Origin: Gammaproteobacteria bacterium
GTDB taxonomy: Bacteria; Pseudomonadota; Gammaproteobacteria; Steroidobacterales; Rariloculaceae
DNA length: 64,000 nucleotides
Reading direction: 5' to 3'
Assembly: GCA_022820625.1 (NCBI GenBank)
Contig: JAJEFE010000077.1
Location: 96,126 to 160,125, forward strand
The position numbers were made by a program, and so were the translations under genes. Positions 4,924 to 50,122 of this stretch are shown piece after piece (the stretch's first letter is position 1; every line of letters starts with the position of its first letter). The notes under the pieces were generated by a model that did no database searches, had not been told where the DNA came from, and was given only the letters and a program-made list of their open reading frames with translations.

Positions 4924-7164
4924 ATGATGACCCGCATGGATGACCGGACGGCAGTCAGGAGGCACTGCAGAGGTGGGGTTCCGATTTGCCTCGTAGGGCT
5001 GCTGGTGCCGGCCGTATGGACGGCGCAGGCGCAAGAGCCCGTGGCGACAGGCGAGATCAAGACCGCGGAGGCCGTTCGCACCGACGAGCCTATCAGCATC
5101 GACGGGCGACTGGACGAAAACGCCTGGAACGACGCCACGGTCATCACGGACCTCCACCAGATCCTCCCGGTCGAATACTCCGAGCCGTCACAGCATACGG
5201 AGTTTCTTGTCCTCTACGACGACGACGCGCTCTACCTGGCGGCCCGCATGTACGACGATCAGCCCGACCGCGTGGTGGCCAAGGTCCTGCGGCAGGGAGG
5301 CATGTCCTGGCTGGACGATCAGTTCAACATCATTCTGGATCCGTTCAACGACAAGCGCAGCGGATACCGCTTCCAGGTCAATCCGAACGGGGTCTGGGAA
5401 GAGGGGCTTTTCAGGGGCGGCGACCAGATGCAGTGGGAATGGAGCGGCATCTGGCAGGCGTCGGCATCCCGGAACGATGAGGGCTGGGTCGCCGAGACGC
5501 GCATCCCCTTCAAGACGGTTTCGTTCCATCCGGACAACGACACCTGGGGCATCAACTTCAACCGCAGAATCGCCCGTAACAACGAATCTGTAGGCTGGGT
5601 ATCCCGGAACCGCACCCAGAATCCGGGTGTTGCAGGAGAAATCACCGGTCTTGTGGGTCTGGATCAGGGACTCGGTCTGGATGTCGTGCCATCCGTGACC
5701 GCAAACAGCCGGCGCGGGTTTTCTTCCGGCACGGAGGACTCCGAATTCGAGCCCTCGCTGGATCTCTTCTACAAGGTCACACCGGCCCTGAACGCATCCC
5801 TGACGGTGAATACCGATTTCTCCTCCACCGAAGTGGACGATCGACAGGTCAATTTGACCCGGTTCGGGCTGTTTTTTCCCGAGAGGCGGGACTTCTTCCT
5901 GCAGGATGCGGATATTTTCGAGTTCGGCCGCATCGGTCAGCGGGAGCAGGGCTCGACCTTCGAAAGGCCGCTGGCCGAGAACGCCCGGCCGTTTTTTTCG
6001 CGCACCATCGGGTTGAGCGCCCGGGGCCAGCCGGTGGACCTTGAGGCCGGCGGCAAGCTCAGCGGCCGGGTGGGCCGCTGGAACCTGGGGGCACTGGCGA
6101 TTCAGCAGGACGAGTTCGAAGGCGTGGAGGCCAAGGACCTCTTCGTCGGCAGAATGGCCGCAAACGTCCTGGAAGAATCCGCCGTGGGTCTCATCGTCAC
6201 CGACGGCGACCCGCAATCGAATGCCGACAACAGCCTGGCCGGCATCGATTTCCGATACCAGAATACGCGTCTGCCGAATGGCAGAACGATCGAATCTGAA
6301 ATCTGGTACCAAAAGACCGAGACGGAAGGATTGGACGGCGACGACGGCGCCTGGGGTGCGCGTTTCTGGATGCCGAACAATGCCGGACTTCGGGGAGGCG
6401 TCGGGCGGAAGGAAGTTCAGCGGAACTTCAACCCCGCATTGGGTTATCTCAATCGCCGCGATATCCGCGATACGACTGGCGAATTCGGATATACCCACCG
6501 TCCGACCGGGTCTTACGTGCGGTCGGTCTATACGGGCGCGACATTCCAGCGGATCGAGCGCTTGACGGGCGGCTTGCAGAGCGAGGCAACGAATTTTCGC
6601 GTAAGACTGGAGAACCAGACCGGCGACACCCTGGCGTTCCTTGCCCAAATCGAGCGCGAGGGTCTTGTCGAGCCGTTCGAGATATCACGCGGCATCGTCA
6701 TTCCCGTCGGGGAATATGCCTTCGACTTGTACGGTGTCGCTCTGGTCACGGGACCCCACCGACGGCTGGTGGCGAACATCAGGGCTGGCGGGGGCAAGTT
6801 CTATGACGGCAATCGCAGGACCGTCAACATGCAATTGGAATGGACGCCCATCCCGCAGTTCAGGACCCTCATTGCCTACGACCACAACGACATCGAACTC
6901 CCCCAGGGCGATTTCGTTCGCCGATTGGCGCGAATCGGGATCGACTACATTCATTCCTCCAGGCTCTCCTGGGTAAACCTGGTGCAGTACAGCAACGACA
7001 CGGAGGTCGCCGGCATCAACAGTCGCATCCACTGGATACCCGAGGCGGGGCGGGAACTGTTCGTCGTCCTCAATCACAATCTGGAAGATCCTGACCTGGA
7101 TAACCGCTTCCATTCGTCTTTCGCGGACCTGTCCGTACAATACCGGCATACGTTCAGGTTCTGA
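4924..7164 (+). CDS. Exported CBM9-like / DUF5916-type large protein (probable outer-membrane or cell-surface)
   Basis: The N-terminal IDGRLDENAWNDATVITDLHQILPVEYSEPSQHTEFLVLYDDDALYLAARMYD pattern is typical of carbohydrate-binding-family-9-like domains fused to DUF5916. Ends in a beta-barrel-like ...YRHTFRF. Confidence 0.65.
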   Translation: MMTRMDDRTAVRRHCRGGVPICLVGLLVPAVWTAQAQEPVATGEIKTAEAVRTDEPISIDGRLDENAWNDATVITDLHQILPVEYSEPSQHTEFLVLYDDDALYLAARMYDDQPDRVVAKVLRQGGMSWLDDQFNIILDPFNDKRSGYRFQVNPNGVWEEGLFRGGDQMQWEWSGIWQASASRNDEGWVAETRIPFKTVSFHPDNDTWGINFNRRIARNNESVGWVSRNRTQNPGVAGEITGLVGLDQGLGLDVVPSVTANSRRGFSSGTEDSEFEPSLDLFYKVTPALNASLTVNTDFSSTEVDDRQVNLTRFGLFFPERRDFFLQDADIFEFGRIGQREQGSTFERPLAENARPFFSRTIGLSARGQPVDLEAGGKLSGRVGRWNLGALAIQQDEFEGVEAKDLFVGRMAANVLEESAVGLIVTDGDPQSNADNSLAGIDFRYQNTRLPNGRTIESEIWYQKTETEGLDGDDGAWGARFWMPNNAGLRGGVGRKEVQRNFNPALGYLNRRDIRDTTGEFGYTHRPTGSYVRSVYTGATFQRIERLTGGLQSEATNFRVRLENQTGDTLAFLAQIEREGLVEPFEISRGIVIPVGEYAFDLYGVALVTGPHRRLVANIRAGGGKFYDGNRRTVNMQLEWTPIPQFRTLIAYDHNDIELPQGDFVRRLARIGIDYIHSSRLSWVNLVQYSNDTEVAGINSRIHWIPEAGRELFVVLNHNLEDPDLDNRFHSSFADLSVQYRHTFRF

Positions 7165-7224
7165 CACGCTCAATTTGCCAAGCAGATACTGAATTATGGT
7201 TCGTATCTATCTAATTTTAACGGA

Positions 7225-7551
7225 GTGCGCACGATCTACGTGGTAGGCGAGGGCGGCCCGGTGCGGCCTCGAATGGGCCGTTCGGTGGGGCGGTGGGAGG
7301 GACGTACGCTGGTTGTAGAGACGACGGACATGGAATGGCGTTACGTGGACGACCTGGGTACCCCTCAGAGCGAGGACGCGGTCATTGAGGAACGCTTCGC
7401 AATGAGCGAGGACGGTGTCCGCCTCGACTGGGAAGCCCGGATTGCCGACCCGGTCAATTACACCGAACCGGTGGTGATGGAAGGCGCCTGGACCTGGGTC
7501 CCGGGTCACGAGATCATGCCGTTCAACTGCGAGTTGCCGGAGAGCGGCTGA
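7225..7551 (+). pseudogene. 5'-truncated remnant of the GRWE/Cys-pair C-module family (paralog of 17572, 21110, 37982)
   Basis: VRTIYVVGEGGPVRPRMGRSVGRWEGRTLVVETTDME...PFNCELP aligns only with the C-terminal half of the 21110 protein (VRRIFMDGRQAP..GFSVGRWEGNTLVVRTTHL...EYECFS). It lacks a signal peptide, the first conserved Cys and an N-module. An AT-rich junction (7165-7224) precedes it. Confidence 0.55.
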
Positions 7552-7709
7552 ACTGAAAGCCCCGGCAAAGTTCTCGCGCGTGGCGTGGCTGCCGCCCAAT
7601 GCCCGCCGTCCGGTCTCTCGCCGGTCCGTGAAATGCGGGAAAGGCGCGACCGCCGCTGTCGGTCGAATGCCAGGCGGCCGCGCCGGTTGTCAGTCCCTGA
7701 ATCTGAGGG

Positions 7710-10118
7710 TCAGCGAGTCCCGAAATCCTTGGTCAGGCTCAGGGAGATCATGCGTGGAGGGCCGCGGTCCGTGAATATCCCGTAGTTCTCCGTGTTCGGG
7801 CGGTTTCCGGGCCTCCCTCCGTGGAAGAAGCGGGCGAATTTGGAGTGCCACCGCCCGTACACTTCGTCCGTCAGGTTGGTTCCCTCAAGCGCTACGGTAA
7901 GCGCCTGGTCCGGAAGGAACCAGGCGATACGGCCGTTCAGCAGCCCCCTGGCCGGAGTCGTGTAGGACTGGTCCGTGTTCTCGGATGAATGGTTGTAGAA
8001 CTCATCCTGCCAGGCGTAGTTCAGATTGGTCGACAGGCTTCCGGCGCCGACATCGGCCCGATGACTCAGCGACAGGTTGTAGCTCAGTTCCGGCGCGCTG
8101 GTTATGAACACGGTCCCCGGCGGACTGGGATTCAGGATGATCGCGTCGGTCCCGCCCGCGGAGAGACTGATGGTCAGGTCGTCGGTCGCGGCCAAGGCGA
8201 AGTCAAGCTCCCAGCCCTTGCTGGATACGTCGCCGAGGTTGACGATTTCGACCACCGCCGAGTCTCCGGTCGTGACCAACATGGCGCCCTGACGATTCGT
8301 GAAGTCCATGTCGAAGTACGTGAGATTCAGGCGCACGCGATCCTCTAGCCAGTTCGTGCGCATACCGACTTCCGTGCTGATGACTTTTTCCGGCTCGATG
8401 GCGTTGATCTCATAAGTCGCAGGGTCGATGGCGCCCAGGCCCATCGAGCCATCGTGGTTGAACGCGCCGGCGCGATAGGCCTTTGAGATCGATCCGTAGA
8501 GCATCGCCTGGTCGGATACATCGTGATCGAGCACGAAACGGTAGTCCGTCTCGCTCCAGCCTTCGTCGCCGGTCGTCTCCCAGAGGCAGTCGGGATCGCG
8601 TACGACCTGCCCGGTGGTGCTCGATGCCGTCGAGCAATTGTTCCATCCGGTGATGTTGAAGTCTCCGCTTTCCCATTCGCGCATGTGAAAACTGGCGTCT
8701 TCGTTGGTATTGCGCAGGCCCACGGTCAGGTTCGTTGCGCCGTTGGGGAAATGGTAGACGCCCTCGGCGAACACGCCGAAGGCCGTTCCCGAGAAAGTGT
8801 CGCCCCAGATGTCGCGCGTATCGGCGTCTCCGTTATCGTTGTTCTGGTTGCGCAGGACATGTTGCAACGTGCTGCGGGTCGTATCGTAGTAGTTGATTCC
8901 GGATACCAGGTCGATGGCGCCGCCGGCCAGAGCGGAATTCAGCAGGACTTCCAGCATGGTGGCGTCGCCTTCATAGTCGCGAAAACGGATTTCCGCCCCG
9001 TAGGTGATCCAGTCCGTCGCCTCGGAATTGGATACGTCGTGCCGGCCGAAGGTGACCTGCAGGCCATGATTCTCGTTCAGGTCCCAGGTCAGCGCGCCGG
9101 TGTATTGCCGGTTGTCGGAATCGTCCCAGGTGGCGCAGTCCGACTCCCAGCTCAAGGGGTCCATATCGACCAGGAAGCAATAGCCCGAAACCGTGTAGTC
9201 GTCGAGAAGCAGCCGCGGGTCGTTCTGTACCAGCGCGGGTTCGCCGTTGTTGATAAGTTGGCGGTTGAGCTGCGCGATGTGGGCGCCGAGGGGCGCCGTC
9301 ATGATGTCCAGTTCCTCCATGTCCCGGCTGGACGGGTTGCCACGCGTCTGTTCGGAGCGGATCTTGAAATCCACCGTCATGGAGTCGTCCGGAACCCACC
9401 TGAAAGCGAGGCTGGCGATGGTATCGTCGACCTGGCCGAGCGTGGCCTGATCGCCGGACACGCCCCGGCGCGTGACGTAGCCGTCCCGGTTCAGGCTGGC
9501 GATGTCGCCCTTGAAAAAGAAATTCTCGCCAAGAGGTGCGTTGAGCGTTGCCTCCAGGTCGGCGCGGCCGAAGTTACCGGCCCGCAACGTCACGTCGGAA
9601 TAGAACTCCTCCGACGGCTTGCGCGTGGTGATGCGTATGGCCCCGCCGGTGCTGTTTCGCCCGAACAGCGTGCCCTGCGGCCCCCGCAGCACCTCGATGG
9701 ATTCGATGTCGATGGTCCTCAGGGCATTTCGCGCGATGCTCGGAAAGTAGACATCGTCGATGTACAGCGCCACACCGCTGTCGGTATCCAGCCCCGGACC
9801 GCCGCCACCGCCTATACCGCGAATGTTGAATGACGGCTGGCTTCCTCCGTTGCCCCGGGTGGGCGCTATGTTCAGGTTCGGCGCGATCGACTGCAGGTCG
9901 TAAAAGTCGGTAACCACCGCTGCTTCGAGGGTCTCCGGCGTGAACGCGGCCACCGATAACGGCGTATCCTGCAGCAGCGTCTCCCGGCGTTCCGCCGTGA
10001 CGACGATTTCCTCAAGTGCCTGTGCGTGCACCGCGCCGGTCACAAGTGACGCGGATACCACAAGAACTACGGCCGCTGCTCCGGGCAGGGCACGTTGGAC
10101 AATATGACTCTTTCCCAT
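7710..10118 (-). CDS. TonB-dependent receptor
   Basis: Signal peptide, then ALEEIVVTAERRETLLQDTPLSVAAF (plug). RGIGGGGGPG..ALYIDDVY, EVLRGPQGTLFGRNSTGGAIRI, and a long beta-barrel. ATG 10118 is preceded by GGAG. Confidence 0.9.
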   Translation of the reverse strand: MGKSHIVQRALPGAAAVVLVVSASLVTGAVHAQALEEIVVTAERRETLLQDTPLSVAAFTPETLEAAVVTDFYDLQSIAPNLNIAPTRGNGGSQPSFNIRGIGGGGGPGLDTDSGVALYIDDVYFPSIARNALRTIDIESIEVLRGPQGTLFGRNSTGGAIRITTRKPSEEFYSDVTLRAGNFGRADLEATLNAPLGENFFFKGDIASLNRDGYVTRRGVSGDQATLGQVDDTIASLAFRWVPDDSMTVDFKIRSEQTRGNPSSRDMEELDIMTAPLGAHIAQLNRQLINNGEPALVQNDPRLLLDDYTVSGYCFLVDMDPLSWESDCATWDDSDNRQYTGALTWDLNENHGLQVTFGRHDVSNSEATDWITYGAEIRFRDYEGDATMLEVLLNSALAGGAIDLVSGINYYDTTRSTLQHVLRNQNNDNGDADTRDIWGDTFSGTAFGVFAEGVYHFPNGATNLTVGLRNTNEDASFHMREWESGDFNITGWNNCSTASSTTGQVVRDPDCLWETTGDEGWSETDYRFVLDHDVSDQAMLYGSISKAYRAGAFNHDGSMGLGAIDPATYEINAIEPEKVISTEVGMRTNWLEDRVRLNLTYFDMDFTNRQGAMLVTTGDSAVVEIVNLGDVSSKGWELDFALAATDDLTISLSAGGTDAIILNPSPPGTVFITSAPELSYNLSLSHRADVGAGSLSTNLNYAWQDEFYNHSSENTDQSYTTPARGLLNGRIAWFLPDQALTVALEGTNLTDEVYGRWHSKFARFFHGGRPGNRPNTENYGIFTDRGPPRMISLSLTKDFGTR

Positions 10119-17571: not shown

Positions 17572-18618
17572 ATGCTGCCAAACAAGACATTTCCACGCAG
17601 GGATCAGGGAGGAAGTACCTTGTCTGTTACCAGTACCAGGCTCGCACTCGGGTTGGCCACGCCGATCGGTCTGCTTTTGCTGACCTGCATTGCGAACGCG
17701 CACCATTCCACAACCGCGATCTTTGACCCACGCCAAACAGCGGAGGTCGAAGGCACCATTACGGATGTTTTCCTGAGAAATCCGCACATCGGCATGACCC
17801 TGCTCGTGGAAAGCGAAACAGGCGAGGAAGAGGAGTGGCAGATCGAAGGAGGCACGTACAACGAACTCGTGCGCATGAACTTCGATGAGTCGACGATTGC
17901 GGTCGGAACGAGGGTCCGGGTGATCGGAATGGCCTCTCGGCGAGGCGCGAACGAAATATACCTCAGACAGGTGCTGTCGCCGGACGGCGGGGTAGTCATG
18001 CGCGCCGGTGTGGACACGCTCTCCGGCAATACGGAGCGGGACCCCGCGGCTGAAGCGGCCGCGCAGGGCATCTTCCGGGTGTGGGTGAACGGCGGCCGGA
18101 TCCACAGGCTCCGAAATCCCCTGTCGCCGACCGCGGCTGCCGAGCAGGCCAGGGCGTCCTGGGATCCCCTGACGGACGACCCGAGCCTGCGTTGCCAGGC
18201 GCCGGGGATGCCTAACGCCAACCTGAACCCCTATCCCATCGAGTTCGTGGACGAGGGCGACCGGATCGTGCTGCGAATCGAGGAGTGGGATGCGGTACGC
18301 ACGATCCACCTGAACGGCGAGATTCCCGACGATGTGGAGTCGACGCCGCTTGGCTACTCCGTGGGCCGCTGGGAAGACAAGACCCTGGTCATCGAGACTA
18401 GCCACGTGGACTATCCGCTGCTGGACGATTCAGGTACGCCCATGAGCAGCGACGTTCGCATCGTCGAGCGATATACGCTGAACGAAGACGATACCCGGAT
18501 GGATTACGAAGTCATTGTTACGGATCCCCAGTACCTTGAAGAGCCGGCCGTCTGGGATGCCGTATGGGCTTGGGAGTCCGGCGTTCAGATCAGGCCCTTC
18601 GAGTGCACGGTGCGCTGA
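17572..18618 (+). CDS. Exported two-module protein: DUF6152-like HHS/NPH N-module fused to the GRWE/Cys-pair C-module
   Basis: Signal ...LLLLTCIANA then HHSTTAIFD, and FLRNPHIGM. C-module LRCQAPGMP ... GYSVGRWEDKTLVIETSHV ... PFECTV. Confidence 0.7.
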   Translation: MLPNKTFPRRDQGGSTLSVTSTRLALGLATPIGLLLLTCIANAHHSTTAIFDPRQTAEVEGTITDVFLRNPHIGMTLLVESETGEEEEWQIEGGTYNELVRMNFDESTIAVGTRVRVIGMASRRGANEIYLRQVLSPDGGVVMRAGVDTLSGNTERDPAAEAAAQGIFRVWVNGGRIHRLRNPLSPTAAAEQARASWDPLTDDPSLRCQAPGMPNANLNPYPIEFVDEGDRIVLRIEEWDAVRTIHLNGEIPDDVESTPLGYSVGRWEDKTLVIETSHVDYPLLDDSGTPMSSDVRIVERYTLNEDDTRMDYEVIVTDPQYLEEPAVWDAVWAWESGVQIRPFECTVR

Positions 18619-21109: not shown

Positions 21110-21763
21110 ATGAATGCGCGACCGACAATGGGTGTTGTAGCGGCCGTCGCTTCGGGTCTCGCGCTCGGCGCACAGGCTCAGTCCGTACCCGAGATAGACG
21201 GAATATGGGAGCCCACACGCGGCGCGCCCGCGGGTCACCCGTCGGTGGCTGACATCAGCCTTACACCGGAAGGGCGGGCGGAGTTCGAACGGTTTTCGGA
21301 AGAGAACGATCCGACCCTGAAATGCATCATGCCGGGCGTTCCCCTCGGCATTCACGATCCGTACCCGCTGGAGATCATCCAGCAGAATCACCAGATCGCG
21401 CTGCTGTACGAGCACTTTCACATGGTGCGCAGGATCTTCATGGATGGCAGGCAGGCGCCCGAGGATTGGTGGCCGTCGCTGGTCGGTTTCTCCGTGGGCC
21501 GTTGGGAGGGCAACACGCTGGTGGTCCGGACGACCCATCTGGCACCGAATCTCACCTGGCACAATGGCATGCCTTTTTCCGGCGATGCGGAGGCCTATGT
21601 GGTCGAGCGCTATCGCTTTGACGGCGACGAATTGTTCCTCACTGCCGAAGTATTCGATCCGAGGTACTACCAAGAGCCGTACGTCATCCTCAGCTCCCGG
21701 ACGAGGTCTCCGGATGCGATGATCCTTGAGTACGAGTGTTTCTCCGAATACAGTGGATTCTGA
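21110..21763 (+). CDS. Exported stand-alone GRWE/Cys-pair module protein
   Basis: Own signal peptide MNARPTMGVVAAVASGLALGAQAQ. LKCIMPGVP ... GFSVGRWEGNTLVVRTTHL ... EYECFS. Confidence 0.7.
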   Translation: MNARPTMGVVAAVASGLALGAQAQSVPEIDGIWEPTRGAPAGHPSVADISLTPEGRAEFERFSEENDPTLKCIMPGVPLGIHDPYPLEIIQQNHQIALLYEHFHMVRRIFMDGRQAPEDWWPSLVGFSVGRWEGNTLVVRTTHLAPNLTWHNGMPFSGDAEAYVVERYRFDGDELFLTAEVFDPRYYQEPYVILSSRTRSPDAMILEYECFSEYSGF

Positions 21764-21785: not shown

Positions 21786-22214
21786 ATGAGGCGCCCTGGA
21801 ATCCTGGTTTGTGCGATTGCTTCAGGTTTGCTGGGATCTCTCCCGGCATTATCGCATCACAGCAGGACAGCGTACTTCGACATGGACACGACCATAGAGC
21901 TCAGGGACGTGACCGCCGTGAGCTTCAAGGTAGTGAACCCCCACTCGCAACTGGTGTTCGCGGCAGCGGACGAACAGGGCAACCGGGTGGAGTGGACGGC
22001 GGGCGCCATGAGTGCCAGCCACCTTCGCCGGGCCCGCGTTCCCGCTGACCTCATCCGCCCGGGCGACACGTTGACGGTTACCGGCTCCCCGAGCCTCGAC
22101 AAGTCGAACGTGATGTGGCTGCATACCGTAATCCTGCCCAACGGCGACGTTGCGGACCTGTTCGATGCCATTCGGACCGGGAACGATGTGATCACGCCTG
22201 CGGCCAGCCGCTGA
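21786..22214 (+). CDS. Exported stand-alone DUF6152-like HHS/NPH module protein
   Basis: AAGGGAG RBS. Signal MRRPGILVCAIASGLLGSLPALS then HHSRTAYFD, and KVVNPHSQL. Confidence 0.7.
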   Translation: MRRPGILVCAIASGLLGSLPALSHHSRTAYFDMDTTIELRDVTAVSFKVVNPHSQLVFAAADEQGNRVEWTAGAMSASHLRRARVPADLIRPGDTLTVTGSPSLDKSNVMWLHTVILPNGDVADLFDAIRTGNDVITPAASR

Positions 22215-33683: not shown

Positions 33684-34658
33684 TCAGGTGAACCTGTTCC
33701 GGTCATGCGGGGCCGCGTAGTCTATTTCGGGACCGCTCGGCACGATGCGCGTGGGATTGATCGATTCATGACTGCCGTAGTAATGCGCCTTGATGTGATC
33801 CAGGCGCACGGTTTCGGCGATGCCCGGCTGCTGATACAGATCCCGCGTGTAGGCGGACAGATTGGGGTAGTCCGCGATTCGTTTCAGGTTGCACTTGAAG
33901 TGCCCGACGTAGACGGGATCGAAACGGAACAGCGTCGTCACCAGGCGCCAGTCTGCTTCGGTGATCGCGCTGCCCGTGAGGTAACGCTGTTCTGAAAGGC
34001 GGTCCTCCAGCCAATCGAGCGATTCGAACAGGGGTCCCACGGCCTCTTCGTAAGCTTCCTGTGTGGTGGCGAATCCGGATCGGTAAACGCCGTTGTTGAC
34101 GGTGTGGTAGACGCGCTCGTTGATCGTGTCGATCTCCTCGCGCAGTGCCTCGGGATAGTAATCGCCAGGCGCGGCACCGACGCCGTCGAATGCGCTGTTG
34201 AACATGCGGATGATCTCCGAGGACTCGTTGGATACGATGGTCCCCCGACGCTTGTCCCACAACACCGGTACGGTGACCCGCCCCGTGTAGTCGCTCTTGG
34301 CCGCGGTATAGACCTGGTGCATGAACTGCGCCTGGTTCACCGTATCCGGTATCTCGGCATCCTTGAACGTCCAGCCGGACTCACCCATGAACCAGTGAAC
34401 GGCGGACAGCGAAATCATGTCTTCCAGCCCCTTGATCGCGCGGAAGATGAGCGTCCGGTGAGCCCACGGGCATGCATGGGACACGTACAGGTGATAGCGT
34501 CCTGCCTCGGCCTTGAAGCCTCCCGTACCGCTGGGGCCGGGCGAACCGTCGGCAGTCACCCAGTTTCTGTATTGCGATTCCTTGCGGACGAATCGCCCCC
34601 TGGAGATTCGTGTGTCGTGCCAGCGGTCCTGCCACTGCCCGTCGACCAGAAGTCCCAT
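33684..34658 (-). CDS. Xi-class glutathione S-transferase (glutathionyl-hydroquinone reductase, YqjG/ECM4-like)
   Basis: GRYHLYVSHACPWAHRTLIFR (CPWA active site). GGAG RBS before ATG 34658. Confidence 0.85.
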   Translation of the reverse strand: MGLLVDGQWQDRWHDTRISRGRFVRKESQYRNWVTADGSPGPSGTGGFKAEAGRYHLYVSHACPWAHRTLIFRAIKGLEDMISLSAVHWFMGESGWTFKDAEIPDTVNQAQFMHQVYTAAKSDYTGRVTVPVLWDKRRGTIVSNESSEIIRMFNSAFDGVGAAPGDYYPEALREEIDTINERVYHTVNNGVYRSGFATTQEAYEEAVGPLFESLDWLEDRLSEQRYLTGSAITEADWRLVTTLFRFDPVYVGHFKCNLKRIADYPNLSAYTRDLYQQPGIAETVRLDHIKAHYYGSHESINPTRIVPSGPEIDYAAPHDRNRFT

Positions 34659-34779
34659 TTCTACTCCACGCCGCCCGTCGTATGCTGCCGGCCATGATAG
34701 CGGCCTCGTCGGCGCTGGCAACTCAGGCTGTACAATGAGGCAGGAAATTCATTGGCCGCATCGCCGCAGGAGAAAAACG

Positions 34780-36024
34780 ATGTCCAGACGCGGATCCTCA
34801 AGCGGTGGAGGCCTCGCCGCACGGCGGGCGTTCCTGCGATACCTGGCCGGGATGCCGGTCGTCGCGGGCTCCGGGTTGCTTCCCCTGCTGGCCGAAAAAA
34901 TCCTGGCGGACGAACTGCCGACGGATTTGATCGAGTCGGCCGGAGATGCGCTCAATGTCTTCGATTTCGAGCCGGTTGCCAAGACGCGCATGTTGCCCGC
35001 CCACTACGGCTATACGGTTTCCGGAACCGATGACGACGAGACCCTGCTGGCCAATCGCGAGGGCTTCCGCCGCTATCGAATCCGAGTGCGGCGTCTGGTG
35101 GACGCCCGCGAAGCAGATACTTCCACCCGTGTCTTCGGCATCCCATGGAGCAACCCCATCGCGCTTGCGCCGGTGGGCGGGCAGGCGAAGTACCATCCGG
35201 ATGCCGAAGTGGCTGCCGCGCACGCCGCCAGGGCGGGCGGGCATACGCAGATTCTCTCCACCATGACCAGCCGCAGCATCGAGGACGTCGCCGCCGCCAG
35301 GAACGAACCCGTCTGGTTCCAGCTTTATCCGACCAACTACTGGCGCGTTGCCGAGGCCCTGGTCAAGCGTGCCGAGCAGGCCGGGAGCCCGGTGGTGGCG
35401 GTCACCGTGGACCGTTCGGCGCCCCGTAACATGGAGACCTACGAGCGGTACGCGCGCTCGGACGCCACAGACTGCACGGCGTGCCACATTCCCGGTGCAA
35501 CGCCTCAGCAAAGGCTCCGCAACCGGGGCGTTTGGACGGGGATCGATCTGGACGGCATCGAGAGCACGCAGGCGACAGGGCTCACGTGGGAGTTCGTCGA
35601 CCGACTGAAGTCGGCGACGTCCATGCAGGTGGTGCTCAAGGGAATCGTCACTGCCGAGGACGCGACGATGTGCCTGCAGCACGGTGTGGACGGGATCATC
35701 GTCTCCAATCACGGCGGCCGTTCCGAGGCCAGCGGCCGTTCCACCATCGAGAGCCTGCCGGAAATCGTTGCTGCGGTTAATGGGCAAATCCCGGTTCTGA
35801 TCGACGGTGGCTTTCGCAGGGGTACGGATATCTTCAAGGCGCTGGCGTTGGGCGCCGATGCGGTGTGCGTCGGCAGGCCCTACGTGTGGGGACTGGGGGC
35901 ATTCGGTCAGGCGGGCGTCGAGCAGGTGCTCAGCCTGTTGCGGGCTGAATTCCGCCGGGTCATGCGGGAAGTCGGCGTGACTTCGGTCGCGCAGATCGAC
36001 AGCTCCTGTATCGAGAGCGCCTGA
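34780..36024 (+). CDS. FMN-dependent alpha-hydroxy-acid dehydrogenase/oxidase family protein with a twin-arginine signal
   Basis: GGLAARRAFLRYLAGMPVVAG (Tat-like). FDFEPVAK..., IVSNHGGRS and DGGFRRGTDIFKALALGA are family hallmarks. AGGAG RBS before ATG 34780. Confidence 0.85.
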   Translation: MSRRGSSSGGGLAARRAFLRYLAGMPVVAGSGLLPLLAEKILADELPTDLIESAGDALNVFDFEPVAKTRMLPAHYGYTVSGTDDDETLLANREGFRRYRIRVRRLVDAREADTSTRVFGIPWSNPIALAPVGGQAKYHPDAEVAAAHAARAGGHTQILSTMTSRSIEDVAAARNEPVWFQLYPTNYWRVAEALVKRAEQAGSPVVAVTVDRSAPRNMETYERYARSDATDCTACHIPGATPQQRLRNRGVWTGIDLDGIESTQATGLTWEFVDRLKSATSMQVVLKGIVTAEDATMCLQHGVDGIIVSNHGGRSEASGRSTIESLPEIVAAVNGQIPVLIDGGFRRGTDIFKALALGADAVCVGRPYVWGLGAFGQAGVEQVLSLLRAEFRRVMREVGVTSVAQIDSSCIESA

Positions 36025-37802
36025 TGTCGAGCCGACACGGGCGATCGAGGCTCCTCAATGCATTGGGCTGCGGGGTATTCGCCGCGTCGCTGGTTGCCTG
36101 CACCGAGCAGGCGTCAACGCCGCGGTACGCCGACGCGATCGTGGTGGGCGCCGGTCTGTCGGGACTCGCCGCCGCCGTGGAAATGGGCGGCGAAGGCGTT
36201 AACGTGGTTCTCCTTGACATGAATTCCGTCATGGGCGGGCACGCCGTAATGGCCGGTGGTTTCGCCATCGTCGATACGCCCATTCAGCACGAGGCGGGAT
36301 TCGAGGACTCGGCCGAAAAGGCGTATGTGGACTGGATGGATTGGACCGATGACGGCGATCCAGCGTGGACGCGTTACTACGCCGAAAACTCCCGGACGAT
36401 GATCTACGACTGGATGGCCGAAATGGGCGTGGATTTCGTGCGCGTGCAGGCGGGCCACGAGAACAGCGTGCCGCGATTCCATTTCACTCCGAGGGGTGCG
36501 CTCGACGTGGTTCTCGCGCTTTACCGCGAGGCGCTCGCGCTGCCGGACGTCGCCTTCGAGTGGAACGAGAAGGTGCAATCGCTGGTTGTCGAGGACGGGC
36601 GCGTGACCGGCGTGACCACGCGGAATTTGCGTACCGGTGTCGAACGCACCCTGTTGGCGCCGAACGTGGTACTGGCCACCGGCGGTTTCGAAGGTAACCT
36701 GGAACGGGTGCTGGAATACTGGCGAACGGATTTGCCGAAGCCCGACCGTTTGCTCCTGGGCGCGTCGATTCACGCCACCGGAACCGGCCACGATATGGCC
36801 GAGGAAGCCGGCGCCGATCTGACCTGGATGAACCGCCACTACATCTATACCAACGGCATGGTGGACCCTCGCGATCCGGAGCAGACGCTGGCCATTACCG
36901 CAGGGAACAATGCAGCGCTCTGGGTCAATGCCCAGGGCCGGCGCTTCACCAACGAAGCGGGGTTCGACAAGACGATCCTGGCGCATGTCCTTGACCAGGA
37001 GCCGACGACCTATTGGATGATTTTCGACGAATCCTCCAGGCACGCGTTTTCCATGCGAGGCCGCGAGTGGATCAACAACCCCACTGACGGCCATGCCGTT
37101 CTCGACCATCCCGAGGCGACGATCAGGGCGGATTCGCTTGAGCAACTGGCCTCGACGACGGGACTTCCCCCGGACCCGCTGAAGTCCAGCGTGGAGCGCT
37201 TCAATGCACTCATCGATGCCGGCGTCGACGAGGATTTTGGCCGCTTTGCCCACCCTGACGAGGCGCCGCCGAAAATCGATCAGGCGCCGTTCTACGCCAT
37301 CCAGTTTTTCCCGATGCCGCGCAAAAGCATGGGCGGCGTCGCCATAGACATGCAGGCAAGGGCGTTGGACGACGCGGGCGAAGTCGTACCGGGGCTCTAC
37401 GCGGTGGGCGAACTCACCGGCAGTGTCGGGATCAACGGCACCCACGGCATGGACGGCATGTTTCTCGGCCCGGCGTTGGTCACGGGGCGCATCGCCGGTC
37501 GCACCATAGCGGATGTGGTTACGGCAGATATTTCCCGGAAACCCATCGCGGAAGTTTCGCCACTGGCGCCGATGTCCGATGCCGGCCCGTGGGAACCGGC
37601 ATTGACGGCGGACGATCTCGAAGGGTTGATAGCCCTGAAGCGCGACGGTTACTGGCACTTCGAAGTATCCCATGAACTCGCCCTGGAGAGGGACTACGAG
37701 TGCGTACTCTGCCACTCGGCGCAGATGCCCTTCGCGCCGTTGGACAACAGGCAAAGCCTCCTGGCCCAAAGTGAGGTCTGCGGGAACTGTCACGGCAGGT
37801 AG
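36024..37802 (+). CDS. Lipoprotein flavocytochrome: FAD_binding_2 (fumarate-reductase/KstD-like) flavoprotein with a C-terminal dihaem tail
   Basis: Start overlaps the upstream stop (TGATG). Lipobox SLVAC. DAIVVGAGLSGLAAA dinucleotide fold, and YAVGELTGS. C-terminal CVLCH and CGNCH. Confidence 0.8.
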   Translation: MSSRHGRSRLLNALGCGVFAASLVACTEQASTPRYADAIVVGAGLSGLAAAVEMGGEGVNVVLLDMNSVMGGHAVMAGGFAIVDTPIQHEAGFEDSAEKAYVDWMDWTDDGDPAWTRYYAENSRTMIYDWMAEMGVDFVRVQAGHENSVPRFHFTPRGALDVVLALYREALALPDVAFEWNEKVQSLVVEDGRVTGVTTRNLRTGVERTLLAPNVVLATGGFEGNLERVLEYWRTDLPKPDRLLLGASIHATGTGHDMAEEAGADLTWMNRHYIYTNGMVDPRDPEQTLAITAGNNAALWVNAQGRRFTNEAGFDKTILAHVLDQEPTTYWMIFDESSRHAFSMRGREWINNPTDGHAVLDHPEATIRADSLEQLASTTGLPPDPLKSSVERFNALIDAGVDEDFGRFAHPDEAPPKIDQAPFYAIQFFPMPRKSMGGVAIDMQARALDDAGEVVPGLYAVGELTGSVGINGTHGMDGMFLGPALVTGRIAGRTIADVVTADISRKPIAEVSPLAPMSDAGPWEPALTADDLEGLIALKRDGYWHFEVSHELALERDYECVLCHSAQMPFAPLDNRQSLLAQSEVCGNCHGR

Positions 37803-37981: not shown

Positions 37982-39097
37982 GTGAATGACTCAATCGCAA
38001 TTTCCCAAGGCAGGATTTACGGTCATTGCGCAGCGGTACTGGTGCTGATCGCCTTTGCGGCTGCAGGGCCGGTTCGTGCCCATCATTCGTTTGCGGCGGA
38101 ATACGATCCCGATAGGCATGGCACGCTGCGGGGCGAAATCGTCGATGTGCAGTTCGTCAATCCCCACGTGCGCTATCGTATCCGCGCGGAGCTGGAAAGC
38201 GGGTCCGTCGAAGAATGGGAACTGCAGACCCACAACGTCCGGACCATGGTGCGCATGGGGTGGACAGCCGGGACGATCGAGGTGGGCGACCGTATCGAAG
38301 TCTCGGGCGCACTGGGTCGTAACGGTGTCAGGAAACTCTCGATGGATTCGGTCGTTCTGGCCGATGGCACGCGATTCGAGCCGCGCGGCGGCGAGGTTGC
38401 CGATGCCTATACGACGAGTGAGATCAACGCCGATCCGAACCAGTCATACGGGGTCGTCACCAACGCTTATCCGATCGACATCACCGGGCTCTGGGACAAT
38501 ACCTATCGATTCAGGTTGACGGTGGACGACCTGGAACCCAGGCCAACGCCGTTCACACCTGAGGGCAAGGCCGCATTCGAGGCCAACGAAAACTGGCGCG
38601 ATCCCAGCAAGAGTTGCCGCTCGGGCGGGTTGCCGAGACTCTTCGGTTCGCCCACGAACATGGAAATCCTCGATGTCGGCGACTATTACCTGATCACCCA
38701 GGCAAATCGGCCCCGAAGGATCTGGATGGATGGGCGCACGGCGCCGCCGCCCGGTTCTGCCCCGAGTCCCATGGGGTTTTCGACCGGGCGCTGGGAAGAT
38801 GAGGTTCTTGTCATCGAGACCACTCATCTCGAGCCCGGCTGGCTGGATGGGTCCGGACTGCCGATGGCAGGCGTTGGCACCCGGCTTGTCGAGACCTATA
38901 CCATCAGCGAGGATCGGCTGAGCATGGAACGGCGGATGACCATCCACGATCCCAACTACACCGAGCCGTTGGTGCGTGTACGAGGTTCTGCCCGCAACGA
39001 CGACCTGCAATTCGTGCTGGATCCCGGCTGCGACCCTCGAGGCTACTATCGCGACTTGCAGCAGCAGGGTCTGATCGAAGCGCTTTGGGAGAACTGA
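37982..39097 (+). CDS. Exported two-module protein: DUF6152-like HHS/NPH N-module fused to the GRWE/Cys-pair C-module
   Basis: GTG start. ...AFAAAGPVRA then HHSFAAEYD, FVNPHVRY, KSCRSGGLP, GFSTGRWEDEVLVIETTHL and DPGCDP. Confidence 0.7.
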   Translation: MNDSIAISQGRIYGHCAAVLVLIAFAAAGPVRAHHSFAAEYDPDRHGTLRGEIVDVQFVNPHVRYRIRAELESGSVEEWELQTHNVRTMVRMGWTAGTIEVGDRIEVSGALGRNGVRKLSMDSVVLADGTRFEPRGGEVADAYTTSEINADPNQSYGVVTNAYPIDITGLWDNTYRFRLTVDDLEPRPTPFTPEGKAAFEANENWRDPSKSCRSGGLPRLFGSPTNMEILDVGDYYLITQANRPRRIWMDGRTAPPPGSAPSPMGFSTGRWEDEVLVIETTHLEPGWLDGSGLPMAGVGTRLVETYTISEDRLSMERRMTIHDPNYTEPLVRVRGSARNDDLQFVLDPGCDPRGYYRDLQQQGLIEALWEN

Positions 39098-39237
39098 TTG
39101 CGCATTTCAATTCGTTTCCGGGAGATTTTGGTGGGCGTCGCGGCGGCATTCGCCGCATGCGGGTTCGTTATTCGTGTTTCCACGAAGCCCTGGTGGAGGG
39201 CGACGCGATCACTGCGACAGGGCACCGGGTACCGGAC

Positions 39238-40989
39238 ATGAGCCGGCTTGAAATGAAGGCGGAGACCGCACTTCTGGTTCTTGTCTGTTCCACCCTGCCC
39301 GCGCTTGCGCAAGAGCGCCCGACAACCCCCGTTACGGATGCGATGCTGCAGGACCCCGACCCTGCCGACTGGCTCATGTGGCGCCGCACGCTGAACCAAT
39401 GGGGGCACAGCCCTCTGGATCAGGTCAACAGAGGCAATGCCGGCGAACTGGAACTGGTCTGGTCGCGGCCGCTGCATTCGGGCGTTCAGGAAGGCACACC
39501 GCTCGTCTATGACGGGGTCATGTTCTTTCCCAATCCCAGTGATGTCATTCAGGCCATGGATGCGGCCACGGGCGAATTGTTCTGGGAGTACGCCCGTGCC
39601 CTGCCGACGGATCTGAACGTCTACTTTCCAGCGCCCGGCATCAACCGGAATCTGGCGATTTACGAGAACAAGATCATCAATACCAGCGCGGACGACTACC
39701 TCTTTGCGCTCGACATGGCCACGGGCGAGCTGGTCTGGGAACACCTGATCATGGACTACCGGGCCGGCGCCCAGCACACCTCGGGCCCGATCATCGGCGA
39801 CGGCAAGATCATTTCCGGACGGGGCTGCGAACCGGAGGGCGGGCCGGACGCCTGCGTCATCATGGCGCACGACGGCTCCAGCGGCGAGGAACTGTGGCGC
39901 ACACGGACCATTCCGGCGCCGAGTGAGCCCGGCGGCGACTCGTGGGGGGATGTTCCCTTCGAGGCGCGCTGGCACGTCGGAACGTGGATGGTGCCGAGCT
40001 ACGATCCGGAACTGCAGCGCGTTTTCATCGGTACATCGGTCACCTCGCCGGCGCCTAAATTCATGCTCGCCGGCAACGATTACCAGTACCTCTATCACAA
40101 TTCCACCCTGTCGCTGGACGCTGTCACCGGCGAGATCGTGTGGTACTACCAGCACCTGGTGGATCACTGGGACCTGGACCATCCGTTCGAGCGGTTGCTG
40201 GTGGACACCGTGGTGGCGCCAAACCCCGACGCGGTCCGCTGGATCAACCCGGATCTGCAGTCCGGAGTGGTCCGCCAGGTGGTCACGGGGATCCCCGGGA
40301 AAACAGGAATCGTTTACACGCTCGACCGGGATACGGGCGAGTTTCTCTGGGCGACGCCGACAGTGGCACAAACGGTAGTCGAGAGTATTGACGGCGCTAC
40401 CGGCGCCGTCCACGTAGCGCAGGACATGCTCTTTACGGGTGCGGAGCAGACGCTTTTCGTCTGCCCGGCAACCTACGGCGGGAAGAACTGGCCCGCCGGC
40501 GCCTACAGCCCGGCTTCCAACACCATGTACATGCCGCTTCAGAACACGTGCATGAACATTCGGTCCACGGCGGAAGAGCCCAGCCTGGACGAACTCTACG
40601 CGATCGACCCGGCCCGGGAAATCACGCCCGGAGAGGAATACGTCGGTACGGTGCGCGCCATTTCCGCCGAAACCGGCGTGACATCCTGGACCTACGAACA
40701 ACCCGCCGGCATTGCCTCGCTGATCGTCACGGATGGCGGACTGGTCTTTGCCGGCGACGCCGCCGGCTGGTTCCGGGCGCTGGACCAGATGACGGGCGAG
40801 GTGCTCTGGGAGACGGATCTCGGTGCCCAGGTAACAGGATACCCGGTGACCTATGCCGTGGACGGCAAGCAGTATGTTGCCGTCAGTACCGGCGGTTCCC
40901 TGACCCTGATGGGGCTGAATCGGCTGGTTTCCGAGGATCTTCGGGCCGGCACCGACACCAATCTGTTCGTCTTCGCGCTGCCGGATTGA
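39238..40989 (+). CDS. PQQ-dependent dehydrogenase (quinoprotein alcohol/sugar dehydrogenase family)
   Basis: Signal peptide. DWLMWRRTLNQWGHSPLDQVNRGNAGELELVWS, repeated W-motif propeller blades, and a C-terminal GYPVTYAVDGKQYVAV. Confidence 0.85.
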   Translation: MSRLEMKAETALLVLVCSTLPALAQERPTTPVTDAMLQDPDPADWLMWRRTLNQWGHSPLDQVNRGNAGELELVWSRPLHSGVQEGTPLVYDGVMFFPNPSDVIQAMDAATGELFWEYARALPTDLNVYFPAPGINRNLAIYENKIINTSADDYLFALDMATGELVWEHLIMDYRAGAQHTSGPIIGDGKIISGRGCEPEGGPDACVIMAHDGSSGEELWRTRTIPAPSEPGGDSWGDVPFEARWHVGTWMVPSYDPELQRVFIGTSVTSPAPKFMLAGNDYQYLYHNSTLSLDAVTGEIVWYYQHLVDHWDLDHPFERLLVDTVVAPNPDAVRWINPDLQSGVVRQVVTGIPGKTGIVYTLDRDTGEFLWATPTVAQTVVESIDGATGAVHVAQDMLFTGAEQTLFVCPATYGGKNWPAGAYSPASNTMYMPLQNTCMNIRSTAEEPSLDELYAIDPAREITPGEEYVGTVRAISAETGVTSWTYEQPAGIASLIVTDGGLVFAGDAAGWFRALDQMTGEVLWETDLGAQVTGYPVTYAVDGKQYVAVSTGGSLTLMGLNRLVSEDLRAGTDTNLFVFALPD

Positions 40990-47881: not shown

Positions 47882-50122
47882 GTGTCAATCGTGCGTAGCA
47901 GCCGGTATCGGCATCCCATCCCATCGCGCAGCGAGATCGTCAAGGCGATGGAGACAGCGGGGCGTCCGCTCACGCTTGTCTCGCTCACAGGGCATTTGCG
48001 GCTCAAGGGCTCCAGGAACGAGGCCGCGCTCAGGCGTCGGCTCAAGGCCATGGTTCGTGACGGGCAACTTATTCGCAATCGTGCACGGGAGTATTGCCTG
48101 GCTCACCACCTGGATCTGGTAATCGGCCGGGTGCGCGCGCGCAAACACGGTTACGGCTTTCTGACACCGGACAGTGGCGGCGAGGACGTCTTCCTCTCGT
48201 CGAGAGAAATGGGCCGCCTTTGGGACGGTGATCGCGTGGCCGCACGCATCAGCGCCACTCAGCGCGGCTCCGAGGGCCGCGTGGTCGAGATTTTGCAGCG
48301 GGCTGTCACGGAAGTCGCCGGGCGCCTGGTCAAAGAGCGGGGATTCGACTGGGTGGAAGTTGAGGGTCGTGAGCGCACAAGGGTGCTCATTCCCAGCGGG
48401 CAAGGCCAGGGTGCCGGGGCGGACGACCTGGTTCGCGTCGAGATCACCTCACATCCCACCAGGCGGACCAATGCCATCGGGCGCGTCGTTCGCGTGCTGG
48501 GCCGTTTCGACGATCCGGGTGTGCAGACCCTGTCGGCCATCCTGTCGCACGGAATCCCGCACGAATTTTCTCCCGGCGTCGAGGCGGAGACGGCGGAGAT
48601 GCCCACGGGCGTCACGGCCGACGCACGGCGTGGACGCAAGGATCTGCGCAAACTGCCTCTGGTCACCATAGACGGCGCGGATGCGAAGGACTTCGACGAC
48701 GCAGTCTACTGCGAACCGGCCGGTAATGGCTGGCGGCTGATTGTTGCGATCGCCGATGTCGCTCATTACGTTCGCGCCGGGACGGGGCTGGATGAAGCGG
48801 CCCGGGAACGGGGGACTTCGGTCTATTTTCCGGATCGGGTCGTTCCCATGCTGCCTGAAGCGCTGTCCAACGGGCTGTGCTCGCTGCAACCTGACGTTGA
48901 GCGTCTGTGCCTGTGCTGCGAAATGACCGTTTCGGAGCAGGGCAGGGTGAAGAAGTCCCGCTTCTACGAGGCGATCATGCGCTCGGCCCGGCGATTCACC
49001 TACGACGAGGCTGCCTGGCTGCTTTCCGGCGAGTCCGGAACGTCTGGGGAGTTCGGAGAGTCCGGAAATTTCGGCAGGTCTGGAGATTCTGGGGAGTCCG
49101 GAAGGTCCGGAAACTCTGGTGGGAAGGATGCACCTTCAGCCGATTCGGCCACGTTTCGCAGCCTGAAGGCCCTGGCTGGTGTGTACGATGCATTCCTGGC
49201 GCGCCGCCGCGAACGCGGCGGCCTCGAATTCGATCTGAATGAAGTTGTCCTCGAACTGGATGACCGGGGTCGAATCGCCAGCGTCGCTCCCCGGCAGCGC
49301 CTCGTCACGCACCGGATCATTGAAGAGTGCATGATCGCCGCCAATGTTGAAGCCGCCAGGTGGCTCCAGAAGGCTCGTATCCCCAGCCTGTACCGGGTGC
49401 ACGAAGGACCGGGTCCGGAGCGGGTCGACGAGCTGATCCTGTTTCTGCGCACGCTGGGCATCACGTCTGTGTCTCCCGGTCGTCTGCAACCCGGCGACAT
49501 GAACCGGATTCTGAAGGCGACGGAATCGGGACCCGAGGCCGAACTGGTGCAAACGATGTTGCTTCGCTGCATGGCCCGTGCAGAGTACAGGCCGAAGAAC
49601 CGCGGGCACTTCGGTCTTGCGCTGCCCGCCTATGCGCACTTCACCTCGCCCATTCGCCGTTATCCGGATCTCCTCGTGCACCGGGCCATCAAGCATCTGC
49701 TCCGCAAGGGCGGCGTGAAGGGATTCAGCTACGATCTGGCGGCGATGGAGCATCTCGGCCGCCATTGCTCGCAAGCCGAGCAACGCGCGGATGAAGCCGT
49801 CTGGGACGTGGAGGAGCGCCTCAAGTGCGCCTGGCTGAAGGATCGTGTCGGAGACCGTTTCACGGTTTCCGTCGCCGGCATCGCGCCTTTCGGACTGTTC
49901 GTGCGTGTGCCGGAACTCGGGATCGACGGCCTGGTACACGTCTCCTCGCTGCCCCGCGACTATTATCATGTCGACGCCGGAGGCAGCGCATTGACAGGTG
50001 AGAATTCAGGCAGGAGTTTCCGTCTGGCCGACCGCTTGCGCGTGCAATTGACGTCGGTGAGTGTCCGGGAGCGCAAGATCGACTTTGTCCCGGTGGAGCG
50101 TACGAGTAAGGCGAGACACTGA
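47882..50122 (+). CDS. rnr: Ribonuclease R (3'-5' exoribonuclease, RNB family)
   Basis: YRHPIPSRSEIV N-terminus as in E. coli RNase R. PLVTIDGADAKDFDDAV, SVYFPDRVVPMLPE, HFGLALPAYAHFTSPIRRYPDLLVHR, and a C-terminal S1 domain. GTG start at 47882 or 47891. Confidence 0.9.
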   Translation: MSIVRSSRYRHPIPSRSEIVKAMETAGRPLTLVSLTGHLRLKGSRNEAALRRRLKAMVRDGQLIRNRAREYCLAHHLDLVIGRVRARKHGYGFLTPDSGGEDVFLSSREMGRLWDGDRVAARISATQRGSEGRVVEILQRAVTEVAGRLVKERGFDWVEVEGRERTRVLIPSGQGQGAGADDLVRVEITSHPTRRTNAIGRVVRVLGRFDDPGVQTLSAILSHGIPHEFSPGVEAETAEMPTGVTADARRGRKDLRKLPLVTIDGADAKDFDDAVYCEPAGNGWRLIVAIADVAHYVRAGTGLDEAARERGTSVYFPDRVVPMLPEALSNGLCSLQPDVERLCLCCEMTVSEQGRVKKSRFYEAIMRSARRFTYDEAAWLLSGESGTSGEFGESGNFGRSGDSGESGRSGNSGGKDAPSADSATFRSLKALAGVYDAFLARRRERGGLEFDLNEVVLELDDRGRIASVAPRQRLVTHRIIEECMIAANVEAARWLQKARIPSLYRVHEGPGPERVDELILFLRTLGITSVSPGRLQPGDMNRILKATESGPEAELVQTMLLRCMARAEYRPKNRGHFGLALPAYAHFTSPIRRYPDLLVHRAIKHLLRKGGVKGFSYDLAAMEHLGRHCSQAEQRADEAVWDVEERLKCAWLKDRVGDRFTVSVAGIAPFGLFVRVPELGIDGLVHVSSLPRDYYHVDAGGSALTGENSGRSFRLADRLRVQLTSVSVRERKIDFVPVERTSKARH
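49028..49126 (+). repeat. In-frame (Gly-X-Y)x11 coding repeat inside rnr, built from GAGTCCGGA-like units
   Basis: Translates to GES GTS GEF GES GNF GRS GDS GES GRS GNS GGK. The nucleotide units gagtccgga / aggtccgga / aggtctgga recur. Confidence 0.85.

Follow-up and report, generated by a model that had tools for sequence, protein, structure and literature searches.

A histidine that becomes the first residue of an exported protein upon removal of its signal peptide has repeatedly proved to belong to a metal site, as in the lytic polysaccharide monooxygenases (LPMOs), CopC, YcnI, DUF4198 and DUF6702. The copper histidine brace of LPMOs, pMMO and X325 has been defined as a structural unit, while the bacterial brace-like proteins outside the LPMOs appear tied to Cu transport and have not been convincingly shown to possess LPMO-like redox activity (PMC10952591). 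A conserved N-terminal His exposed by signal-peptide cleavage marked real metal sites also in DUF4198, DUF6702 and the anglerases (PMC12537917), as well as in YcnI (PMC8424229); DUF4198 binds Ni, and DUF6702 binds Ni, Co or Cu with a modelled tri-His site (PMC12537917). Here we analyze a member of another family, DUF6152, encoded at positions 37982-39097 of a 64,000-nucleotide stretch (hereafter "the window") of contig JAJEFE010000077.1 from a gammaproteobacterium of the family Rariloculaceae. The mature protein very likely starts with His-His (HH), which is followed by an Asn-Pro-His (NPH) motif. These residues are best read, with a probability that we put a little above even, as a metal site of a non-canonical His3/N-terminal-amine type.

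Judging from its translation, the open reading frame (ORF) encodes a periplasmic two-domain protein. Its features, delimited with the help of hidden Markov models (HMMs) and AlphaFold2 models, are as follows:

37982-39097, forward strand: ORF of the fusion between DUF6152 and a fatty acid-binding protein (FABP)-like module, 371 aa, GTG start (ORF call and translation)
37982-38080, forward strand: predicted Sec-type signal peptide, 33 aa, ending in Val-Arg-Ala (translation and cleavage statistics of paralogues)
38081-38086, forward strand: His34-His35, predicted residues 1-2 of the mature protein, followed by Ser (codons 38081-38089 read His-His-Ser)
38081-38392, forward strand: DUF6152 domain (N-module), predicted SSB/PriB-like oligonucleotide/oligosaccharide-binding (OB) fold with a nine-residue N-terminal arm (HMM span)
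38159-38167, forward strand: Asn60-Pro61-His62 (NPH), on the strand 1-2 loop of the modelled OB barrel (sequence; DSSP assignment of both models)
38462-39097, forward strand: C-terminal FABP/calycin-like beta-barrel module (C-module), stop codon included (HMM span; AlphaFold2 full-length model)

The interval singled out in the preliminary description, 37982-38400, thus comprises the signal peptide and the N-module, i.e. the 5' part of this ORF. Residues 26-117 match Pfam PF19649 (DUF6152) with 67.2 bits against a cutoff of 27 (E-value 1.5e-18). The C-terminal ~230 residues have no match in Pfam or NCBIfam, and the NCBIfam scan of the whole 371-aa protein returned no match either.

To locate the signal-peptidase site, we took the HH pair as the anchor for an alignment of 131 paralogues encoded in this genome and applied the -3/-1 rule, disallowing Pro at +1. 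The rule is satisfied directly before His1 (His34 of the ORF) in 130 of the 131 sequences (99%), compared with 17-66% at other offsets and none at offsets +1 to +4; therefore, the mature protein very likely starts with His-His, the only consistent signal-peptidase I site being the one that precedes His34. The composition of the site is typical: position -1 is occupied by Ala in 108 sequences, Gly in 14, Ser in five and Thr in three, position -3 by Ala, Ser, Val or Gly in 120, a hydrophobic h-region is present in 130, and the median length of the signal peptide is 24 aa. The three copies in the window read VRA|HH, ANA|HH and ALS|HH, all with small residues at -3 and -1. The preliminary description had proposed that His becomes residue 1 after an AxA-like cleavage site, and both the paralogues and the window copies agree with this.

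Analysis of the homologs reveals that this arrangement is a property of the whole family. The distance from His34 to Asn60 is exactly 26 residues, and HH followed by NPH 26 residues on was found in 117 of 120 full-length homologs, down to 52% identity, the remaining three being truncated or mis-started. A HMMER scan of 1.84 billion cluster representatives yielded 5894 DUF6152 clusters (50% identity, E-value <= 0.001), most of whose representatives are stand-alone proteins of ~130 aa; among the best 150 representatives, 137 have HH located 20-30 residues before NPH, mostly at exactly 26. In an alignment of 438 distinct domains His1 is conserved in 94%, His2 in 97%, Asn27 in 91%, Pro28 in 99.5% and His29 (His62 of the ORF) in 98%, and the missing His1 or His2 correspond to alignment gaps, save for two cases of Gln at position 2. 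The same holds for 150 paralogues from the window's own genome, with His1 aligned in 131 and His2 in 140 (the remainder being gaps), and Pro28 and His29 in 148 each. A second invariant His within NPH, which had been placed some 25-30 residues after the first, is therefore borne out, with 26 as the typical spacing; the HH...NPH motif, conserved far beyond chance, is by sequence a signature of DUF6152 (A|HHSFA...NPH) and not a peculiarity of three genes in one window. DUF6152 (PF19649, IPR046150) is a very large, uncharacterized family: our literature searches found no paper that names it, and a search for Rariloculaceae returned nothing.

An AlphaFold2 model of the mature N-module was built with 140 aligned sequences (predicted local distance difference test, pLDDT, 91.9; predicted TM score, pTM, 0.84). 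Comparison with Foldseek and VIA-align gave PriB (4apv) as the best structural match (Z-score 9.7, root mean square deviation 2.3 A over 81 aligned residues), followed by SSB (4dam, Z-score 9.1), with a Foldseek E-value of 4.5e-4 for the OB match. The N-module can thus be predicted confidently as an OB barrel of the SSB/PriB type, with five strands and a helix separating strands 3 and 4. The match concerns the fold alone and would not imply a nucleic-acid function for an exported protein. The structural alignments mostly start at model residue 10 or 11, so that residues 1-9 form a family-specific arm preceding strand 1; residues 1-10 have an average pLDDT of 82, i.e. the arm is modelled as ordered. 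In sequence searches of the PDB nothing scored below an E-value of 0.27 with the single sequence or 0.17 with the family profile, in which PriB appeared at about 1. A feature match to MamS/MamX in the ESM Atlas (0.78) was below the meaningful level and was set aside.

Membership in the LPMO or CopC families was rejected. A Pfam scan down to an E-value of 1 returned only DUF6152, DUF4131 and TY-Chap3, with no LPMO, CopC, YcnI or PmoB family, and none of these four is among the structural matches listed for the N-module. An LPMO identity (AA9/AA10 and related) disagrees with the model, which is an OB barrel instead of an immunoglobulin/FnIII-like beta-sandwich; CopC (PF04234) was discarded on the basis of the OB fold and the lack of an HMM match down to an E-value of 1, no direct structural comparison with CopC having been made.

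As a surrogate for spatial proximity, we carried out a mean-field direct coupling analysis (DCA) of the 438 DUF6152 domains (effective number of sequences, Meff, 351; 5460 residue pairs). The top pairs recover the OB strand ladders 1-2, 2-3, 3-5, 4-5 and 1-4, and the signal can therefore be regarded as validated. Residue 7 of the arm couples with residues 31 (just after NPH), 79 and 85, all within the top 0.5% of pairs, and with residue 48 within the top 1%; in addition, residue 4 couples with 81 and 77, residue 5 with 74 and 83, and residue 6 with Asn27 and 80. From the couplings with positions 27, 31, 48 and 74-85 we infer that the arm lies at the barrel end where the NPH loop, the strand 4-5 loop and the last part of strand 3 come together. 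Since His1 and His2 precede the coupled arm positions by only 2-5 residues, they may plausibly lie near His29. Couplings among the invariant columns 1, 2, 18, 28, 29, 41, 46 and 69 were discarded, as they were caused by a few degenerate sequences. A complex prediction of the N-module, C-module and Zn gave ipSAE values (interface scores) of 0.00 and 0.01, below the mark, with no ligand geometry, and speaks neither way on binding.

How does this compare with the described systems? With the histidine brace DUF6152 shares the N-terminal His exposed by signal-peptide cleavage and a second conserved His, but differs from it in the fold and in the extra adjacent His. The suggestion of a histidine-brace-like site made in the preliminary description stands in part: the N-terminal His, the distal invariant His, the coevolution that places the arm at the NPH-loop end and the pairing with a HemJ/CopD-like gene elsewhere (see below) speak for it, while the OB barrel, in place of the LPMO, CopC or PmoB folds, and the two adjacent histidines do not. 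With the CopC/CopD (E. coli YobA/YebZ; PMC11923076) and YcnI/YcnJ (B. subtilis; PMC8424229) systems it shares a small exported beta-protein with a conserved mature N-terminal His, and in the wider DUF6152 family the gene likewise adjoins one for a small membrane protein that bears His and appears to belong to the CopD/HemJ superfamily. It differs from CopC/CopD, however, in being an OB barrel and not cupredoxin-like, in having His-His instead of a single His, and in having a partner nearer to HemJ. DUF4198, DUF6702 and the anglerases, known for their "signal-strapping" sites, likewise combine a conserved His at +1 of the signal peptide with further conserved His, and the modelled three-His site of DUF6702 (His1, His28 and His32) has a spacing similar to that of His1, His2 and His29 in DUF6152 (PMC12537917). 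These proteins are nevertheless beta-sandwiches with no sequence or fold relationship to DUF6152, which is not mentioned in that work (PMC12537917). Compared with the majority of Pfam DUF6152 members, which are stand-alone and ~130 aa long, the window protein is distinguished by its fusion to a 230-aa FABP-like barrel and by a ~150-copy expansion.

CusF is a small periplasmic OB-fold Cu(I)/Ag(I) chaperone whose ligands, a His, two Met and a Trp, lie inside the barrel. DUF6152 resembles it as a small periplasmic OB barrel, but the site of CusF is in the barrel and not at the N-terminus, and DUF6152 has no conserved Met; CusF is not among the structural matches listed for the N-module, which in itself does not exclude similarity.

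The comparison bears on whether the protein could be an oxygenase or peroxygenase with a canonical copper histidine brace, in which the amine and N-delta of His34 and the N-epsilon of His62 would bind Cu in a T-shaped geometry while the barrel presents a hydrophobic substrate. LPMOs form expanded gene families, which the multiplication of paralogues described below recalls; the N-terminal and the distal invariant His are both present, and an FABP-like fold supports an oxygenase in Oplophorus luciferase (nanoKAZ, matched by the C-module with a Z-score of 8.2). The invariant His35 is unaccounted for in this scheme, however, the fold is unlike that of every known brace protein, and the bacterial brace-like proteins outside the LPMOs, being apparently tied to Cu transport (PMC10952591), argue against it too. 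We consider such an enzyme very unlikely.

The metal-site reading receives a further argument from the gene context of DUF6152 in other Pseudomonadota. In a survey of 300 evenly drawn genomes of this phylum, to which we added the window's own genome (301 in total), DUF6152 was found in 28 of the 300, mostly as a single copy. We inspected the context of 12 such loci. All nine divergent copies, with the pattern A|HHGW..YD..NPH, are immediately followed on the same strand by a gene with a Pfam DUF6644 match (9/9 single-copy loci), which encodes a protein of ~160 aa with four predicted membrane helices. DUF6644 occurs in 21 of the 301 genomes, all of which carry DUF6152, and in none of the 272 genomes without it; adjacency of the two genes, judged by coordinates, was found in 16 genomes plus the window's genome, representing seven families. 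A 16-sequence DUF6644 alignment, compared by hhalign with HemJ-like proteins picked up by the Pfam CopD model, gave a probability of 83% (E-value 8.5e-6), with the conserved His in the first transmembrane helix (TM1) of DUF6644 aligned with the TM1 His of the HemJ-like proteins, whereas the comparison with two CopD-like sequences alone gave no match (probability 1%). A profile search with DUF6644 listed nearly only near-identical Bradyrhizobium proteins, and the profile was not deepened. DUF6644 thus appears to be distantly related to HemJ/CopD, and nearer to HemJ than to CopD, and its pairing with DUF6152 may be regarded as analogous to the CopC/CopD gene arrangement. Three stand-alone DUF6152 genes from metagenomes have heterogeneous contexts (TonB receptor, alpha/beta hydrolase, AtuA, ABC transporter) with no metal genes.

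In the window's genome, a locus on another contig (C130:24034-27189) contains two C-module genes, one stand-alone DUF6152 gene and two tandem DUF6644 genes, thereby tying the multiplied family to its ancestral partner in the membrane. DUF6644 tandems were also found on contigs C3 (32143-33177) and C38 (51509-52446), neither of which has DUF6152 closer than 4 kb. The route of export differs among family members, since the DUF6152 protein encoded beside DUF6644 in one single-copy genome (L060:4935-5291) carries TRRLFL, a leader of the twin-arginine type, ahead of A|HHGW, in contrast to the Sec leaders of others.

The C-module was examined in an AlphaFold2 model of the entire mature protein, based on an alignment of 103 sequences (pLDDT 88.6, pTM 0.84). 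Within this model mature residues ~125-308 match UnaG (Z-score 8.4, 113 residues aligned), SAHS (8.3), nanoKAZ and nitrobindin (7.8), all of these values being middling, and CRABP by Foldseek (E-value 1e-3, TM score 0.5). At this middling level, the predicted structure of the C-module resembles the FABP-type calycins, which are ten-stranded barrels with a helical lid, and lipid-binding proteins.

Both modules have been multiplied to an unusual extent. The window's genome, of 4.56 Mb, contains 149-150 DUF6152 modules and 135 FABP-like C-modules, distributed over 202 ORFs that carry either one: 83 fusions, in which the N-module always comes first, 67 ORFs with the N-module only and 52 with the C-module only; there are 34 adjacent split pairs. 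Among the genomes sampled, all 18 from this family have DUF6152 matches, from 42 to more than 112 each, whereas in the other families of the order just one of 12 genomes has any, a single weak match; by these counts the expansion is lineage-specific and extreme. The neighbors enriched within two genes are sulfatases (15/47), metallo-beta-lactamase (MBL) hydrolases (7/14), PQQ dehydrogenases (6/11), Amidohydro_2 proteins (5/9) and CBM9/DUF5916 proteins (5/13). TRAP/TonB components, too, are enriched among the neighbors. The preliminary description took the haem, flavin and PQQ enzymes around the window copies to fit a redox role. With ~150 paralogues, next to which hydrolases are found as often as redox enzymes, this argument loses most of its weight.

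A third exported module of ~200 aa (its family being ~220 aa long) was found at G000:C3:76809-77522 and in five paralogues. All six stand-alone copies lie within two genes of DUF6152 or C-module genes, and the module is once fused behind DUF6152 (G000:C142:42487-43437). It has no Pfam match and no relation to the N- or C-module according to hhalign; it is possibly an alternative partner domain for DUF6152.

The multiplication and its neighborhoods raise the question of whether a metal is involved at all. The HH arm and the NPH loop could form a latch or a ligand-contact surface, with the histidines serving protein or ligand contacts or acid-base chemistry, in a set of periplasmic carriers whose FABP-like barrel passes a hydrophobic or sulfated substrate to the neighboring hydrolases, dehydrogenases and transporters. 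The expansion of 150 N-modules and 135 C-modules is in the style expected of substrate-specific proteins, the enriched neighbors (sulfatases, MBL hydrolases, PQQ dehydrogenases and TRAP/TonB components) would provide the recipients, and the C-module resembles lipid-binding proteins. However, the stand-alone DUF6152 proteins that make up the majority of the family have no barrel and yet keep HH and NPH, an invariant residue 1 after cleavage is difficult to account for if neither the free amine nor the terminal position matters, and the carrier model gives no reason why the gene is regularly paired with that of a HemJ/CopD-like membrane protein bearing His. We regard carriers of this kind as rather unlikely, though they are the alternative to which we give the most weight.

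A metal site, in turn, provides the best single explanation because it accounts at once for the invariant residue at +1, the adjacent invariant His, the third invariant His on the loop contacted by the arm and the partner from the CopD/HemJ superfamily, and has published precedent (PMC12537917, PMC8424229, PMC10952591). In the mechanism we propose, the N-terminal arm would fold back on the barrel end bearing the NPH and strand 4-5 loops, and the free amine, the imidazoles of His34 and His35, and His62 would together form one mononuclear transition-metal site. Cu(II) would be the most likely metal, with Ni, Zn and Fe as alternatives. Even alone, an N-terminal Xaa-His peptide such as Gly-His-Lys chelates Cu(II) strongly. 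Because there are two adjacent N-terminal His, the T-shaped N3 geometry is just one option, and a site with three imidazoles plus the amine seems no less likely than the canonical T-shaped brace; the putative site would thus be histidine-brace-like but non-canonical, on a new scaffold. Ancestrally, DUF6152 would partner the four-helix DUF6644 membrane protein related to HemJ/CopD, and in view of this partnership its basic job would probably be to hold a metal, or to pass metal or electrons, at the inner membrane.

Several observations weigh against a metal site. DUF6152 has no conserved Cys or Met, and no conserved carboxylate was shown near the site; the Asn-Pro of NPH could be a mere structural turn; and for the invariant His columns as such the contact signal of the DCA was not usable. 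No copper or nickel homeostasis family is among the annotated families enriched in the neighborhoods, ~150 paralogues per genome are unusual for metal trafficking, and there is no DUF6644 gene in the 64-kb window, so that the pairing is missing at this very locus.

On the strength of the expansion and the hydrolase-rich neighborhoods, we argue for a substrate-specific role of the module in this lineage, in periplasmic chemistry or binding, and against one in bulk metal trafficking. Speculatively, the metal tip might act on, or sense, a small hydrophobic ligand held in the barrel. Taken further, the DUF6152-FABP fusions and pairs could be an undescribed class of periplasmic copper oxidoreductases on a new N-terminal-His scaffold, with the barrel presenting small hydrophobic or sulfated metabolites (e.g. 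host-niche compounds, if the lineage is sponge-associated, as suspected from isolate names) and the ~150 paralogues representing a radiation of substrate specificity comparable to the fungal LPMO families; this extension we hold to be quite unlikely. If the metal-site reading is correct, this class of sites would be extended by an OB-fold scaffold and a His-His variant, a function would be gained for the widespread DUF6152/DUF6644 envelope module (present e.g. in Bradyrhizobium), and a gene family that makes up roughly 4-5% of this lineage's genes would be explained.

The surroundings of the gene in the window include other members of both module families as well as flavin- and pyrroloquinoline quinone (PQQ)-dependent enzymes:

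17572-18618, forward strand: paralogue with the same fused N+C architecture, HH at 17701-17706 and NPH at 17779-17787 (Pfam DUF6152, HMM spans)
21110-21763, forward strand: C-module as a gene of its own, signal peptide included, immediately before the stand-alone N-module (HMM span)
21786-22214, forward strand: stand-alone DUF6152 paralogue, HH at 21855-21860 and NPH at 21936-21944 (Pfam DUF6152, HMM spans)
34513-37802, forward strand: flavin mononucleotide (FMN)-dependent dehydrogenase and FAD_binding_2 protein, upstream of the gene under study (Pfam, translations)
39085-40989, forward strand: PQQ-dependent dehydrogenase, downstream (Pfam PF01011; tblastn alignment over 573-581 of 634 aa)

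The two other DUF6152 copies score 60.2 and 44.7 bits. The upstream FMN-dependent dehydrogenase is of the 2-hydroxyacid type and has a long N-terminal extension with an RR (Tat-like, i.e. twin-arginine translocation) motif, and the FAD_binding_2 protein has a lipobox-like LVAC leader and two C-terminal CxxCH motifs, which suggests a periplasmic flavoenzyme/flavocytochrome pair. The FMN dehydrogenase and the FAD/dihaem flavoprotein are kept upstream of this paralogue in five related genomes, and the FMN enzyme is found upstream even in a locus that is only 50% identical.

This neighborhood invites the idea of a haem or electron relay, in which the histidines would serve as ligands of haem iron or of a different redox cofactor, while the domain would shuttle electrons or haem between periplasmic enzymes and the HemJ-like DUF6644 membrane protein. 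HemJ binds haem b, and it is with HemJ-like proteins that DUF6644 aligns best, the TM1 His included; the barrel resembles the haem protein nitrobindin, and the gene of this paralogue is flanked by those for a flavocytochrome c and a PQQ dehydrogenase, the latter of which needs an electron acceptor. However, neither a motif nor a pocket for haem binding was recognized in the OB domain, a 100-residue OB barrel with surface histidines is no known haem fold, and most paralogues adjoin hydrolases, which need no electron carrier. To this relay we give only a slim chance.

The true start of the downstream PQQ dehydrogenase is probably near 39240. In three relatives (loci L031, L033 and L034, at 7113-8600) ~1.4 kb separates the DUF6152-FABP gene from the PQQ dehydrogenase, and this segment has a weak DUF6152-like match (E-value ~1e-6). 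Because the PQQ gene follows directly in the window, compared with the ~1.4-kb spacer in the relatives, it seems that a gene has been lost here between the two (39097-39250).

A partial C-module (7213-7515, forward strand; HMM positions 82-185), probably a gene remnant, lies just downstream of a gene (4924-7164, forward strand) for a 746-aa protein with CBM9_1 and DUF5916 domains, which is one of 13 paralogues in the genome, five of them near DUF6152 or FABP-like genes. A second 746-aa ORF (47882-50122, forward strand) may belong to the same family, and these CBM9/DUF5916-type proteins are possibly outer-membrane components.

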